Under the pieces are notes generated by a model. The model saw only the letters and a program-made list of their open reading frames with translations. It made no database searches and had not been told where the DNA came from. Below, piece after piece: positions 48,519-54,726 of a DNA stretch of 64,000 bases (position 1 is its first letter; each line of letters opens with the position of its first letter). Both the position numbers and the translations under genes were made by a program. The DNA lies in IMG/VR virus record IMGVR_UViG_2877982868_000014. One strand, written 5' to 3'. Source of the stretch: a virus. Taxonomy: Duplodnaviria; Heunggongvirae; Uroviricota; Caudoviricetes.

Positions 48519-48844
48519 TAAACACGTAAATCGGTAACGGCTGGAAATCATTCAATACTCGCACTATCGAAAGTTCACCAGCCAACCGCGACACGCTCTT
48601 ACATACGAAGTGCCGCGCTTTCCTTAATAATTTTTTAGCAGTACTGTGTAAATAATGAGCGACCTAATCCATGCATGACGCGTAGTGCCTATTGTGCATC
48701 TTTCTGCGTCTCTTTTTACTGGACCCAAGCCAATGATGCTGGCGATACCATTCCCGCCAGGCCCACTTACAACAGTAAAATTCGGAGCTCTGCCTTTACA
48801 TACAATACAATCTACCTAACAAATATCCCCCGGACATTGCAACA

Positions 48845-48870
48845 CAAAAACCGGAGCCGGACTCCGGTTT
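48845..48870. terminator. Bidirectional intrinsic terminator
   Basis: AAAAA-CCGGAG-CCGGA-CTCCGG-TTTT. Confidence 0.6.
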
Positions 48871-48885
48871 TGTGAAGCTGTCGGG

Positions 48886-49155
48886 TTACTTCATCCCGCC
48901 AATATTTTCCCACGTCCCGTCAGCACGCAGGATTTGCAGCGGTCTTACCACGCACTGTATCTGCTTTTTATCCGCATCCAGTATCACCACCTGCGTGATT
49001 ACCCTGTCCTGCTCCGGAATAATACCATTCTCATCGGACTCCAGGATGTCTGCCGGCCCCAGTCGCAGTTGTGCTGTAAGCGACTGCCCGTGTTCACGGC
49101 CATCATGCTTTCCGCAACCACACAGACGCTGCATAAGTTTTTTTAGTATATTCAT
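48886..49155 (-). CDS. Short tail-fibre-associated protein sharing the fibre C-terminal domain
   Basis: LRLGPADILESDENG... parallels fibre end FRLGPASIIETNSNG... Confidence 0.5.
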   Translation of the reverse strand: MNILKKLMQRLCGCGKHDGREHGQSLTAQLRLGPADILESDENGIIPEQDRVITQVVILDADKKQIQCVVRPLQILRADGTWENIGGMK

Positions 49156-49156
49156 G

Positions 49157-50476
49157 TCATTCTCCTGTTCTGCCTGTATCACTGCCCACTTCATCCAGCC
49201 CCTTAACATCCTGCCACGGCCCGTCACCAAACCTGACCTGCAAATGCCGAAACAGCCCCTGAACCTGTGTGGCATCTTTGGGGTCAAGAAAGGTCAGTCC
49301 GGTGATGAGTGCGCCATCTGTATCCGGGAACCAGCCATTGCTGTTTGTCTCAATAATGCTCGCCGGCCCCAGACGAAAACGGATTTGTGTCTCCCCCGGG
49401 TCGCCCTTCGGTCCCTGAGGTCCGGTTGCCCCCACCGGGCCAGCCGCACCTGTTTCTCCTTTCGGTCCCTGTGGGCCTGCCGGGCCTGCCGCACCGGTAT
49501 CTCCCTTTGGACCCTGTGGACCTGCATTTCCCGTCAGACCGGTCTCTCCCCGCTCTCCCCTGTCACCTTTCGGCCCCTGCGGGCCTGCCGGACCAGCATC
49601 ACCTGCCGGTCCCCGTTCGCCGGTTGCCCCGACAGGGCCGGTGTCACCGCGCTCTCCCTTATCACCCTTCGGCCCCTGAGGACCCGCGGGCCCCTGTTCC
49701 CCCTTTGGCCCGGGAGGTCCCACCACGGTGGGGATTCGGTTTACGGCCTCTTCCGCCGCTATCCTGCTTTGTTCCGCTGACTGTGCGCTTTCTGCTGACT
49801 CCCGGGCTTTTTCTGTTGCGGTCGTTGCATCCCTGGCTGCATTACCGGCTGCACTTTCTGCCGTCTTTCTTGACAATTCAGCTTCTGCTGCACTTTGTGA
49901 TGACTCACTGGCTTTTTGAGCGGCCGCAGAAGCCGAGGACGAGGACGCATCCTCTGACTGCTTTGCAGCGGCTGCACTTTCTGCCGCCTGCCGGGCTGAC
50001 TCCAATGCATCCCCTGCTGAAGTGTCAGCATTTGCCGCGCTCTCTTCTGCCTGACTGGCTGATATGCCGGCATTCCTCGCGGACGTCTCCGCCTCTCCGG
50101 CATTCTTCTTCGCCTCCTCAGCGTGACGCGCCGCTTCTTCCACCATCAGTTCAAAACGACGCAGTGCCTCCGGCCGGACGTCATCCTCCGACATGGCACC
50201 GAGAAAATCATTCAGCGTCCCCGGTTGAGAATCTTCATACACGGTGATGGTCCCGGCATGTGACGGCGGGAACCCTTCCACCAACAGAATAACGCTGTAC
50301 TGACCGTACTCAACGTCCATGCTGTAACGACCGGCTTCATCCGGATTTTCAGAGGCCACCGTGTTCACCACCACCGTGGCGCTGTTACGTCTGGCTTTCA
50401 GTTGAATGGTGCAGTTCTCTACCGGTTTTCCTGTGCCGTCTTTCAGTACACCTGAAATCTTTACTGCCATATTCAC
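49157..50476 (-). CDS. Side tail fibre protein with collagen-like Gly-X-Y repeats
   Basis: About 37 GXY triplets (GPPGPKGEQGPAGPQGPKGD...) encoded at 49384..49714; Ala/Glu/Ser-rich coiled region. Confidence 0.8.
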   Translation of the reverse strand: MNMAVKISGVLKDGTGKPVENCTIQLKARRNSATVVVNTVASENPDEAGRYSMDVEYGQYSVILLVEGFPPSHAGTITVYEDSQPGTLNDFLGAMSEDDVRPEALRRFELMVEEAARHAEEAKKNAGEAETSARNAGISASQAEESAANADTSAGDALESARQAAESAAAAKQSEDASSSSASAAAQKASESSQSAAEAELSRKTAESAAGNAARDATTATEKARESAESAQSAEQSRIAAEEAVNRIPTVVGPPGPKGEQGPAGPQGPKGDKGERGDTGPVGATGERGPAGDAGPAGPQGPKGDRGERGETGLTGNAGPQGPKGDTGAAGPAGPQGPKGETGAAGPVGATGPQGPKGDPGETQIRFRLGPASIIETNSNGWFPDTDGALITGLTFLDPKDATQVQGLFRHLQVRFGDGPWQDVKGLDEVGSDTGRTGE

Positions 50477-50485
50477 CCCACAAAA

Positions 50486-50512
50486 AAGCCCGCCTGAACC
50501 GGCGGGCTGTCA
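50486..50512 (-). terminator. Intrinsic terminator after lom
   Basis: GCCCGCCGGTTCAGGCGGGC then TTTTTT on minus strand. Confidence 0.55.
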
Positions 50513-50534
50513 TAACACTGTGTTACCTGGCTAA

Positions 50535-51134
50535 TCAGAATTTATAGCCGACACCCACGATGAAGCCGTCAGTGCGCCAGTCGCCACTGCCGGAGCCTTC
50601 ATAAGCAATATCAATGGCCACGGATTCGGTCGGGTTAAACTGCACGCCAGCCCCCCACGCCAGAGACGTGTTGCTGTGGCGACCGTCATCACTTCCGGTC
50701 AGCACATCGTGCGTTTTCCCCTTGTTGTCAGTTACGCGAAGATAATCCCCGGAGAAAGTCGACACACGGCTGTAAGCCACACCCGCCATCGCATACGCGC
50801 TGAACCATTCATTCACGCGCACAGACGGCCCCGCCATTACGCTGAACCAGCGGTTACGAACGGAATCTTCATGCCAGCGGGTATCGCTGTAACGGGTAAG
50901 CTGGCGATTCTTGTCTCCTGCATAGCTGAATGACGTCACCAGCCCCAGCGTGTCCGTAAATTCATAACGGTATTTCACGTTAATCCCGTTAAGATTATCG
51001 CTACCGGGAGCGCTCGTCCGGGCATGAAGATACCCCGCGCTCAGCGTGGCCTGCTGCTCAGACGCCCATGCAGGCGCGCCGGATACGGCCAGACAGATGG
51101 CTGCGGACAAAATGGCGGCATAAAGTTTACGCAT
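50535..51134 (-). CDS. lom: Lom outer-membrane protein (Ail/PagC/Lom family)
   Basis: 199 aa, near-identical to lambda Lom over most of its length; signal peptide. Confidence 0.9.
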
Positions 51135-51201
51135 AATTACCTCTCGCTTTTCTGCAATAAAAAAGGCGCCATTTCTGGCGCCCGTATCTGGGTTATAAAA
51201 T

Positions 51202-54200
51202 TCAGCTAATCGTGATGCCTGCAGTGGCTTTCTTCATCACCACAACCAGCAAATCGCTGATACTTGCTGTGGGATACCAGTTATTTACCAGCCATGCTGA
51301 CACCGAAAACTCCAGTGTCATGTGACCGTGACCGGCAGGCATATCAATAACACCACTGTAAATCAGCGTATTATCCAGCGCGGTACGGTTATAAATTTCA
51401 GCACCGTTTTTCCGCACTATCAGACGGCATGAGGAGTAAATATCAGTATGCTCTTTCTCATGTTTAGCGCCGCTGAATGCCACCGCCGGAATAACAATCT
51501 GCCGGTCAAACGGCTGATCGTCATAAACCCTGACGGTAATGGTTCCTGATGGCCACCGCTCCGGTGCACGGGAGTCCCGGGGGAAAGCTTTGCCCACTGT
51601 TTTAACGAGATCGCCTTCAATCTGGTTCGCGGACAATTTTCCCAGAACCCGACAGTTCTCGTTAATCGTGACGTTGTTGAGCGTCCCGGAGTTCGCATTC
51701 ACGTTACCGCTGATATCGGCATTTTTCGCCGTCAGCCGCCCGTCCGGTGTCAGGGAAAATGCCGGAGGATTACCGCCGCTGGTAATGGTGGGAGCCGTCA
51801 GATATTTCAGGAACACTTCATTCATAAATATCTGATCGCCCTGACCAACAAACATCGGCTTTGTGTTGCCATTCGCAGGATTAATCATCGCAATCCTGTC
51901 TGCCGCCAGCAGCACCTGACTCTGCATTCCTGCTGGCGTATTCTCAATACCGGCACCGATACCCGCAATATAAAGGCGTCCGTCCTGCATCTGCTGCAGT
52001 TTCACGGCCCACATGCTGTTCAGGTTATTATTTGTATCAACCTGAACTTTCTGTATCTGCTGGATTGCCGCACTCTGATTTTCCAGTTTTTTATTGACGG
52101 TCTGCGTGATTTCATTGCTGACATTCGTAATGGACGTCCTGATTTCAGCCAGGTCCGGCGCAAGCTGACCGTTATCAATCTGCGTCCACAGCTCCTGGGC
52201 CAGATGTGTTTTCCCGATTTCTCCTTTGAAAAAATCCAGGTAACCTTCCGCATCATCGCTCGCCCGACCGACAGCCTCCACGAATGCCGATTTGCCAACA
52301 GTATTCACACTGCGGATATAAAAATAATAATCATGGCCCGGTTTGATATTGATACTGGCAGCTATCCAGTACAGCGCCGAGCCAAGATAGCGGGCTGCGG
52401 TTTCAACCTGCCTGATATCCGCAATCCGCTTTTCCGAGAACCAGAACTCAAACTGTACCGTCGGGTCATAAACGGCAAGATGCGGCGTGGCGGTTATCTG
52501 AAAATAGCCCGGCGTCAGCTCAATCCGCGACGGTGCTGCCGGTGCGGCAATCCGGAAGGTGGTGGTGGCAGGTTCACCCTGCTGGCCATAGCTGTTTATC
52601 GCCCGCACCGTCAGGGTGTATTCCCCGAGCGGCAGGCCGCTGAAACGGTGCTCCGTGTCTGCGGTGATGGCGGTGGTCACCAGTCTGGCATCCGTTCCCT
52701 TACCACTGGTCAGGCGCAGACTGAAGCGCACGCCCTTCACCACCCGCGGCGTGTCCCATTTAGCCTGCGCCAGATACTGGCCGTCAGCTGCACTCACCTC
52801 CACCGTCAGGTGCTGTACTGCCGGTGGGATGACGCTGTTCAGGGAACCTGACTGCGGCTCAAAGCGGGCACCGTTATCCACGATGGCTTCTTTTTCCGGT
52901 ACGTGCTGCACCGCCGTGATGGCAAAGGTGCCGTCCGTGTTTTCCCGGACGGAGACACAGCGGAACAGGCGACGGCACAGTGACGGCAGGGAGAGTCCCC
53001 ACACCCCGTATGTCTCCACACCATCAGGCAGGGTACTGACCTGTATCCGGTCCGGCGCGGGGTGTGCGGTGATGTCCACACTCACCGGCTTACCGCTGCC
53101 GTTAATCAGGTTCACCGTGGCGGCACCGGTCTCCGGCAGTGTCACCTCACGGTCCAGCGTCAGGGTGCGGCTGGCGGCATCGATGGACAGGACACGTCCG
53201 CCGGTCATGGTCCCGGCATAGTCGTTATCACAGATTTCAATAATGTCACCGGGTGTGTGACGCAGCCCCTGTGACCCAAGCGTGAAATCCACCGTCTGCG
53301 TTTCCAGCAGTCCGGTCTTTATCACCCACAGCCCGGCACGGTGGGCCTGACCGCGACTGGTGCAGCCGAACGCATCCATCTTCAGCAGGTTGCGTCCGTA
53401 GCGCAGTATGGCTTCCGGGTCTTCCACCAGTTCCGTGGAGGTCTGCCAGCCGTTCTGCGGGTCGGTGTAATTCACCTCCACCGCCGTGTGGCGGTCCTTC
53501 AGGGCGCTGAAGCTGTAGCGAAACCCCACGCCGTTATCATCCACCACCACATCACTGTTGGTGTACGGCCACACCACATCCGACGGACTGTCCTGAACGA
53601 ACGTCAGCGTCTGGCCGTTCCATACCGGCATACAGCGCATCGCCGAGCAGAAATCACTGAGAACGTCCCACGCCTTACGCTGTTGTGACAGGTACGCATT
53701 AAAGGTCATCCGCGGCTCTGTGCCCCCGAAACCATCAGGGACCATCTGGTCGCAGTACTGCGCAATGGCATACAGCGCCCACTTGTCCACATCCGCCGCC
53801 CCCAGGCGTTTTCCCATGCCGTAGCGCGGGTGAGTCAGCATGTCCCACAGGCACCAGGCCGGGTTGTTGCTGTATGCCGGTTTCAGGCTGCCGTCCCAGA
53901 TGCCGCTGTACGTGCGTTTTTCCGGGTCATAGTTTGACGGCACCTGGATGATGCGACCGCGGATATGGTAGTTCACCGTCATCTGCTGACCGCCAAACTG
54001 CTCCGCATCCACCTGCAGCCCCACAATGGCCGTGTTCGGGTAGCACTGTTTCACATCGATGATTTCGGTGTATGACGACCACAGCGTTCTGTTCTGCAGC
54101 TGGTCCGTGGTGCTGTCCGCCGTCTCCCTGACCATCCGGATGTTAAAGGGCCGGGGCGGCAGATTATCCAGAATCACCGACGCCAGGAACTGCGAGGTGG

Positions 54201-54726
54201 TCTTGCCGTTAATGGTGACATCCTTTTCCGTCACCCAGTTACCGTTACGCTGCAACTGAATCAGCAGTCGGACAGAAGAGTGATTACGGTCGCCCTTTGA
54301 GGTGGTCTCCAACAGTGACTGCACCCCGAAGGTGACCCGCAGGCGGTCAATGTTCGCGGACGTAATGGTGCGCGTCACCGGCTTTGCCTTCGTCACTTCC
54401 ACGCCCAGTGCGGTTTCAGCTCCGGAGGACTCAAAGCCTTCCGGTGGTGTCTGCTCCTGCTCCCCGGCACGCCAGACCGCAGTCACACCGTGTATCACGG
54501 GATTACCGTCCGTGTCCGTCAGCGGGGTTTTGTTCACCAGAATACTCTGCAGCCCCTTCACCGGACCTTCAATCGGCCCTTCACCAATGGCGTCAATCAC
54601 GCTCATCATCTGCGTGGACTTAAGATTGTCCTTTGCCTCTACCGGCGTGTGCCCCTTGCCGCCCCCTTTACCCACTCTGTCCCCCTCTCCTGTCTGATGT
54701 CTGAATCTGTTTATGCCAGAAAACAA
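51202..54726 (-). CDS. Host-specificity tail tip protein J
   Basis: 1174 aa following I/K/L/M as in lambda. Confidence 0.9.

Follow-up and report, generated by a model that had tools for sequence, protein, structure and literature searches.

The DNA analyzed here, a 64,000-nucleotide stretch of a virus of the Caudoviricetes (IMG/VR record IMGVR_UViG_2877982868_000014; hereafter the window), raises the question of why a gene for a collagen-like side tail fiber is directly followed by a small gene that repeats the C-terminal domain of the fiber. A preliminary description of the locus had proposed that the small open reading frame (ORF) could be a recombination remnant or a separately expressed receptor-binding or chaperone module. 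Based on the analyses presented below, we propose, with a probability of about 0.7, that the two genes are a unit encoding an EPclA-type fiber and a separately made, selected paralog of its PfC domain, which would be a dispensable trimeric accessory of the fiber.

Positions 48800-50560 of the window are 100% identical in DNA sequence to Enterobacteria phage VT1-Sakai (AP000400.1), and from its sequence the locus is assigned to the terminal part of a Stx1 prophage of the VT1-Sakai/Sp15 type at yehV. In VT1-Sakai (Sp15) of Escherichia coli O157:H7 Sakai, the fiber gene and the small ORF are H0004 and H0003 (ECs2941 and ECs2940). The AP000400.1 annotation ends the tail operon with J, lom, H0004 ("tail fiber protein"), and H0003 ("hypothetical protein, similar to 933W L0122"), beyond which lie a dinI-like gene that carries an SOS box and, after it, the attachment site. 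The window and VT1-Sakai have the gene order lom, fiber, small ORF, dinI, and attachment site in yehV in common; there is no difference between them within the fiber/small-gene pair, and they diverge from lom onward, so that the window would derive from a different O157:H7 strain or from a prophage that has recombined. Neither an invertase nor a reverse transcriptase was found among the neighbors of the pair (lom, J, dinI, and the attachment site), and an Rfam scan of positions 47800-51300 returned only a chance match below the gathering score.

RefSeq names the products of the two genes "prophage tail fiber N-terminal domain-containing protein" (fiber) and "phage tail fiber C-terminal domain-containing protein" (small gene). 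When complete E. coli genomes were searched with a 1761-nt query, 692 of the 5426 contained a place covering at least 80% of it, and partial matches were present at up to 18 places per genome. We conclude that the fiber and its small paralog are a real, conserved, and ordinary pair and that both genes are already known and annotated. The features of the locus are collected in Table 1.

Table 1. Features of the fiber/small-gene unit (positions in the window)
Feature	Position	Strand	Details or basis
EPclA-type collagen-like side tail fiber gene (probable start)	49157..50470	-	437 aa + stop; H0004/ECs2941
PfN domain (prophage tail fiber N-terminal)	50072..50470	-	PF08400
PCoil, Ala/Glu/Ser-rich low-complexity segment, predicted trimeric coiled coil	49721..50071	-	composition; Ghosh et al.
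Collagen triple-helix tract	49388..49720	-	37 uninterrupted Gly-X-Y triplets (111 aa); PF01391
Fiber PfC domain, predicted C-terminal trimerization knob nucleating collagen folding	49193..49384	-	PF06820; Ghosh et al.
Coupling junction AGGAG-AA-TGA-C-ATG	49153..49166	-	sequence reading
Small gene, standalone PfC paralog	48886..49155	-	89 aa + stop; PF06820, phrog_576
N-terminal 28-aa extension of the small protein, MNILKKLMQRLCGCGKH...	49072..49155	-	alignment; unrelated to fiber
Intrinsic-terminator-like hairpin and U-run closing the fiber/small-gene unit	48841..48871	-	RNA fold

A mechanical reading of the fiber ORF (49157..50476, minus strand) gives the 439 aa of the preliminary description, counted from a GTG. 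The real start is likely the ATG at 50470, which gives 437 aa, because the matches to PfN and to the PDB collar each start at residue 3 and because AP000400 annotates a protein of 437 aa. Pfam matches to the fiber fall in the order PF08400, PF01391, and PF06820. The first covers its full model (230 bits, residues 3-135), and residues 3-95 also match the PDB entries 9e7m and 9mgh, "Tail fiber protein" (E = 4e-52), 9MGH being the collar domain of the Ur-lambda side tail fiber. The N-terminal ∼94 residues of the fiber are therefore homologous to the lambda Stf collar, which attaches the fiber to the tail tip, and this homology explains the attachment of the fiber encoded here.

The segment that follows has the Ala/Glu/Ser-rich composition described earlier, with 45 Ala, 23 Ser, and 21 Glu among the 140 residues from 111 to 250; Leu, Val, and Ile together account for only 5 of the 121 residues from 125 to 245. 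By regex count, residues 253-363 form the longest unbroken Gly-X-Y run, of exactly 37 triplets, in agreement with the earlier estimate of about 37, and imperfect 99-nt repeats underlie the tract (direct-repeat family D1, 99-nt spacing). The suggestion that collagen repeats vary in length also held: the tract comprised 15-38 triplets in 109 intact fiber ORFs of related loci (37 triplets in 89 of them), and the length of the coiled coil varied as well. Long antisense ORFs cross the collagen tract on the plus strand (48872..49780 and 49387..50247), and these are attributed to the GC-rich codon periodicity of the Gly-X-Y repeats.

The remaining Pfam match, PF06820, covers residues 365-428 of the fiber (123 bits). 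In sequence, the fiber thus has a PfN domain, a PCoil segment, a single uninterrupted (Gly-X-Y)n tract, and a PfC domain, which is the PfN-PCoil-Col-PfC architecture by which Ghosh et al. (2012, PMC3368898) defined EPclA; the PCoil of this type is a low-complexity Ala/Glu/Ser stretch of ∼116 aa with almost no Leu, Val, or Ile. Their table of EPclA proteins lists ECs2941 of Sp15 at 437 aa with a 111-aa collagen region, and gives collagen lengths of 63-144 aa. When analyzed by SEC-MALLS, CD, and EM, recombinant EPclA (rEPclA) was a dumbbell-shaped trimer with a true collagen triple helix, and PCoil and PfC were trimerization modules (PMC3368898). In addition, Col-PfC refolded quickly and reversibly after melting, which indicates that PfC nucleates the helix (PMC3368898). 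By analogy with rEPclA, which is >90% identical and is closest to ECs2717, the fiber encoded here would form a trimer with a collagen triple helix.

The small ORF begins with the ATG at 49155 and ends with a stop codon at 48886-48888, and its equivalents are H0003/ECs2940, L0122 of 933W, and ORF68 of Sp5. AP000400 starts the ORF further upstream (129 aa), whereas RefSeq and PHROGs give 89 aa; a mechanical 133-aa ORF that starts at a TTG inside the fiber gene was considered as the product and is not likely. The small protein matches PF06820 (Phage_fiber_C) at 123.2 bits, over residues 28-89 and positions 1-64 of a 64-position model whose curated cut-off is 25 bits, and it matches phrog_576 over residues 1-89 of 89 (E = 2e-60). 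These were the only families found; among the Pfam, PHROG, and NCBIfam matches of the small protein there was no Tfa family.

The arrangement of the two genes was read from the minus-strand sequence around their junction, …ACAGGAGAATGACATGAAT…. A Shine-Dalgarno (SD) sequence, AGGAG, lies 6 nt before the ATG of the small gene and inside the last codons of the fiber gene, whose TGA stop codon ends one base before that ATG. A promoter scan found no σ70-like promoter inside the fiber/small-gene unit. At the other end of the unit, 15 nt past the small-gene stop, an 11-bp stem is followed by a U-run, and the 56-nt segment containing this hairpin folds at -19.3 kcal/mol (z = -3.1). A consensus terminator scan missed the hairpin because A-U pairs take up the T-run. 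With these features, the small gene appears to be arranged for translation coupled to that of the fiber from the late transcript.

Homology to the fiber begins in the small protein at (Q/F)-L/R-RLGPA, and its first 28 residues have no fiber counterpart. This leader, MNILKKLMQRLCGCGKH…, is predicted by AF2 to contain a short helix (residues 3-12, low confidence), which is followed by a conserved CGCGK motif; a Citrobacter homolog retains LCGCGK. A reading of MNILKKLMQRLCGCG as a lipoprotein or signal peptide was rejected, as the sequence is without a hydrophobic core and has Arg and Lys where the lipobox context excludes them. A PDB sequence search found no solved PfC structure. Because the AF2 model of the small protein is of low confidence (pLDDT 56.6, from a 6-sequence alignment), we infer its trimerization and docking from the paralogous domain only.

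When the C-terminal regions of the fiber and the small protein were aligned by BLASTP, 25 of 62 residues were identical (40%, E = 4e-13), and each PfC domain matches the whole PF06820 model at ∼123 bits, a similarity far beyond chance. The preliminary description was therefore correct in stating that an adjacent ORF of roughly 90 aa repeats the C-terminal domain of the fiber. At the DNA level the similarity of the two copies is limited to one exact block of 11 nt at RLGPA, CTGGGGCCGGC, and a further block of 12/13 identical positions; the copies, in which RLGPA has the same codon phase, form direct repeats. The small gene is therefore probably an ancient paralog of the fiber knob.

In the searches made, the PfC family was confined to Escherichia and Citrobacter prophages and one distant metagenomic fiber. 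An exhaustive profile search returned 79 proteins among 1.84 billion representatives, nearly all of them Escherichia fragments or deletion chimeras. A scan of one genome per species identified three loci. One is in E. albertii; the others, on a 725-nt contig labeled "Xanthomonas pisi" whose copy is 94% identical and on a contig of a Clostridiales MAG, probably reflect contamination by E. coli. Homologs from Citrobacter rodentium are shorter (60-78 aa). The distant relative (P0145, locus L164) is a metagenomic phage fiber in which short Gly-X-Y stretches separate four tandem PfC-like modules and a long collagen tract comes after them, from which it follows that PfC can be strung along a trimeric fiber, beyond capping it only.

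Conservation of the small gene was analyzed in two samples of loci. In 80 IMG/VR loci found with the sequence of the small protein itself, the coupling junction was identical in 78, and the ORF was 89 aa long in 78. A first pN/pS estimate was biased, as the loci had been selected by the amino acid identity of the small ORF; a second sample, drawn through the fiber PfC instead (73 evaluable loci), gave the same result. In this second sample the small ORF was intact in 66 loci and disrupted in 7. The fiber gene, which is five times longer, was disrupted in roughly a quarter of the loci found with the small protein. Since the two genes are disrupted at similar rates per base, intactness alone is uninformative. 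The prophages in these samples are often defective.

Over the 54 distinct intact alleles of the small ORF in the fiber-PfC sample, pN/pS was 0.17 for the whole ORF, with values of 0.064 for its PfC part and 0.37 for the leader; by comparison, the fiber PfC gave 0.25, and the two off-frames of the small ORF gave 1.1-1.8. A pN/pS of 0.06 in the PfC part is unusually strong conservation for a receptor-binding tip. The 89-aa form dominates the protein clusters, and clusters of homologs contain from hundreds to >1000 members each. At codons 4-6 of the small ORF, a run of A7 was present in 146 of 150 copies, whereas three copies had A6 and one had A4; phase variation at this run was considered and set aside, as these counts are compatible with sporadic mutation or homopolymer sequencing error.

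About ten loci contain a third PfC fragment, of the short type, 0.7-1 kb further downstream. These fragments lie between nleG-type effector genes, have in-frame stops, and are only 75-78% identical, and we regard them as true remnants that contrast with the small ORF. Given the clear selection signal and the availability of true remnants for contrast, the small ORF appears to be a maintained protein-coding gene, under purifying selection on its own frame, rather than a decaying remnant.

The view that the small ORF is left over, without function, from an old duplication or an exchange of modules does fit the surroundings of the gene, as the region at the end of the tail operon is recombination-prone, with decayed PfC fragments, many deletion chimeras, and effector cargo adjoining it. 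However, a leftover would not be expected to show pN/pS values of 0.064 in its PfC part against 1.1-1.8 in its off-frames, invariant start signals, and a conserved length of 89 aa, or to have homologs in E. albertii and C. rodentium as well. The selection test has already largely refuted this reading, which we consider very improbable, and with its own SD and ATG, its invariant junction, and these pN/pS values, the small ORF does not have the properties of the recombination remnant that had been proposed initially.

Both the paralogy of the small gene and its interpretation as a reservoir are already in print. In a gene-by-gene dissection of the Stx2 phage Sp5, Mondal et al. (2016, PMC5155283) suggested that the homologous 89-aa ORF68 is a "reservoir" for fiber variation, in which case the small ORF would mainly be a spare C-terminal cassette that is grafted onto the fiber by recombination. 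The in-phase RLGPA codons within the exact 11-nt block are consistent with such grafting, as are two natural chimeras: P0063, in which a collagen tract is joined to a short-type PfC at a GPA microhomology, and P0121, in which a short N terminus is joined to a fiber-type PfC. However, the 11-nt and 12/13 blocks are too little for efficient homologous exchange, and exchange between direct repeats is a one-way deletion. The fused form is also rare (4 member sequences for P0063 against thousands for the free 89-aa form), and neither 160 loci nor the exhaustive profile search yielded a full-length fiber with a short-type PfC. In addition, a silent cassette needs no invariant SD and ATG, no conserved 28-aa leader, and no terminator. 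Use of the small ORF mainly as a cassette is thus decidedly unlikely, and recombination seems to touch the PfC domains as sporadic events in decaying prophages.

In lambda, tfa follows stf, and the small gene occupies the position of tfa in this order, as would be the case for a tail-fiber assembly chaperone that helps the PfC domain and collagen tract of the fiber to trimerize. The tight translational coupling, which suggests that the two proteins are made in matched amounts, points in the same direction, and in the loci examined the small gene was found only behind PfC-ended fibers. It follows EPclA fibers in long-tailed phages and EPclB fibers in short-tailed Stx2 phages; in one locus (L005), the fiber has three collagen runs and appears to be of the EPclB type, and the junction after it is unchanged and leads into an 89-aa small ORF that is 99% identical. 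However, recombinant EPclA trimerizes without the small protein, and Col-PfC and PfC likewise trimerize and refold without it (PMC3368898). In Sp5, the fiber ORF67 (ECs1228, EPclB type), which is located at the tail end of the virion, is essential, whereas ORF68 is not: its deletant still forms plaques and lysogens, and no phenotype of the deletion was reported on K-12 (PMC5155283). The small protein also lacks the match to a Tfa family that a chaperone of this kind might be expected to have, and we consider this function unlikely. Of the earlier proposal of a separately expressed module, separate expression fits the sequence, but an obligatory chaperone role is disfavored by the published work.

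The same junction could instead serve a +1 shift at GAA-UGA-C (…TGE-D-MNILKK…), which would produce a minor form of the fiber ending in two PfC knobs in tandem. Past GAA, the codons in the +1 frame are GAC ATG AAT, in frame with the small ORF, and the weak stop context UGA-C with the SD-like AGGAG just upstream resembles the +1 frameshift site of prfB, where a weak stop is likewise combined with an upstream SD-like element. The distant fiber with four tandem PfC-like modules also indicates that a tandem PfC is structurally possible. However, the P-site GAA cannot re-pair in the +1 frame (AAU), and AGGAG overlaps the P-site codon instead of lying 3 nt upstream, which separates this site from those of the prfB type; its spacing is ideal for ordinary initiation. 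No protein in which the fiber is fused to the small ORF was found in any database search, and Mondal et al. found no frameshift signal (PMC5155283). We regard recoding as extremely improbable.

Together, coupled translation and strong conservation suggest that the small gene supplies the fiber with a dispensable accessory, a separately made PfC trimer. In the two-gene unit that we propose, the fiber and small genes would be transcribed together as the final unit of the tail operon in a lambdoid Stx1 prophage. The PfN collar of the fiber would dock on the tail tip, its shaft would consist of the trimeric Ala/Glu/Ser coiled coil and the 37-triplet collagen triple helix, and its PfC domain would trimerize, nucleate the collagen zipper, and form the distal knob. 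These properties of the fiber modules have been shown for close homologs.

As the SD lies in the last codons of the fiber gene and the ATG one base past its stop, the small protein would be translated by termination-reinitiation coupling. It would then form a PfC trimer of its own, for which the N-terminal helix and CGCG motif may serve as a clamp or as a docking piece. We infer that this trimer is a dispensable accessory that is bound to, or caps, the distal knob; alternatively, it may improve assembly of the fiber or adsorption on natural hosts. With either role, the small protein would not be an essential chaperone, and its gene would not be a silent DNA cassette.

A more specific version holds that the small PfC is a second trimeric knob that docks on the fiber PfC, or is occasionally fused to it by recoding, and thereby sets adsorption or host range. 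We consider this version rather unlikely. If it were true, the fiber tip would be built from a duplicate of the fiber's own terminal domain, with a role on natural O-antigen-bearing hosts that has so far been invisible in K-12 assays.

The present analysis adds three observations to what was in print: strong purifying selection on the small gene, almost no DNA homology between it and the fiber PfC copy, and truly decayed PfC copies that look different from it. Together, these weaken the published "reservoir" idea and that of a remnant. Fibers of this kind sit on phages that spread genes for Shiga toxin and type III effectors among E. coli, so that any tuning of fiber adsorption affects the movement of virulence genes.

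The locus can be compared with several known systems. The EPclA proteins have the same domain order and lengths as the fiber encoded here, with >90% identity among copies, and the small PfC gene downstream of them was not discussed by Ghosh et al. (2012, PMC3368898). A literature search found the small gene addressed in no paper besides that of Mondal et al. (2016). In two array studies ECs2940 or ECs1229 was differentially expressed, with signals that cross-hybridize among many copies. Sp5 (ORF67/ORF68) and 933W (L0121/L0122) have the same 89-aa PfC ORF directly after a PfC-ended collagen fiber. The fibers of these short-tailed virions, which belong to the EPclB type, contain a Pf2 repeat and two collagen tracts and are essential; in contrast, the fiber encoded here is a lambda-Stf-like side fiber on a long-tailed phage.

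The locus differs from the invertible segments of Mu and P1 and from diversity-generating retroelements in that its PfC copies are direct repeats that share an 11-nt identity block. It resembles lambda stf-tfa in having a homologous N-terminal collar, the same position after J and lom, and a fiber gene followed by a small co-translated gene. However, the shaft and tip of the two fibers are unrelated, and the small gene here, which is no Tfa homolog, copies the terminal domain of the fiber. Finally, although PfC has no sequence relationship to collagen C-propeptides/NC1, the Scl2 V domain, or foldon, each of these is, like PfC, an autonomous trimer that registers the chains and starts the zipper.

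Between lom and the start of the collagen-like side tail fibre gene lies a strong terminator-like hairpin (window 50487-50508, minus strand; 8 bp, 7 of them GC, with a T-run), so that, as judged from the sequence, expression of the fibre would have to depend on late transcription with antitermination or on a promoter that escaped recognition. The small gene that follows the fibre, which encodes a standalone PfC domain, contains an A7 homopolymer in codons 4-6 (window 49133-49139, minus strand). When this run is shortened to A6, the body of the small ORF shares the fibre reading frame and a TGA stop is the sole separator. Phase variation at this run was rejected because A6 variants are too rare (3 of 150 copies); these variants may be sequencing errors. 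Two long antisense ORFs are read here as by-products of GC-rich triplet periodicity and not as genes. The positions of these ORFs and of the other features are collected in the table.

Proteins P0063, P0121, P0028, P0066, and P0088 are chimeras involving the PfC of the small ORF. Among these deletion chimeras, the domain is joined to a collagen tract at a GPA/CCGGCAG microhomology, and its other fusion partners are the fibre-type PfC, a CII-like sequence, and fragments of J and of Lom. The chimeras are mostly singletons, and they resemble remnants left by the decay of EHEC prophages.

In related prophages, outside the window, the intact small gene is followed 0.7-1 kb downstream by a third copy of the short-type PfC coding region, which is decayed, with in-frame stops and 75-78% identity. 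The position of this copy between NleG-like type III effector genes, which lie on both sides of it, suggests that effector cassettes were inserted by recombination events that used the 3' end of the small gene as their anchor. On the chromosome flank, the yehQ side is broken by an IS629 copy (window about 43.0-44.2 kb), according to the AP000400 annotation.

Feature coordinates in the window and in related contigs
Feature	Location	Strand	Remarks
DinI-like gene	window 48270-48518	+	SOS box annotated; adjoins prophage end and split yehV
Antisense ORF	window 48872-49780	+	302 codons; across collagen/coiled-coil coding region
Antisense ORF	window 49387-50247	+	286 codons; across collagen/coiled-coil coding region
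lom, J	window 50535-54726		
Decayed short-type PfC copy	L015 4954-5100		
Decayed short-type PfC copy	L017 4348-4494		
Decayed short-type PfC copy	L026 4955-5101		
Decayed short-type PfC copy	L020 5048-5116		
Decayed short-type PfC copy	L024 5047-5115		
L162	NZ_JPLE01000138.1		725 nt; labelled 'Xanthomonas pisi'
L163			Clostridiales MAG contig

The sole remote relative of PfC found among 1.84 billion representatives is a distant 565-aa phage fibre encoded by a metagenome contig (SRR17035117_85161; L164 3505-5202). This protein has four PfC-like modules of ~77 aa in tandem, with short Gly-X-Y stretches between them, and beyond these an extended collagen tract and a C-terminal domain that is unrelated. 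Two very short contigs assigned to unrelated taxa (L162 and L163) also carry PfC sequences nearly identical to those of E. coli prophages, and these copies are most likely assembly contamination.

Identity to AP000400, the VT1-Sakai record, runs through the fibre, and divergence starts within lom, with many mismatches from window 50651 onward; NZ_CP017440 matches window 48800-50560 at 100%. The J ORF of the window is unbroken (1174 codons, counted from TTG), whereas J in the VT1-Sakai record is annotated as split by mutation. Based on the divergence from lom onward and the intact J, the source of the window is a different O157:H7 strain or else a prophage that has recombined.
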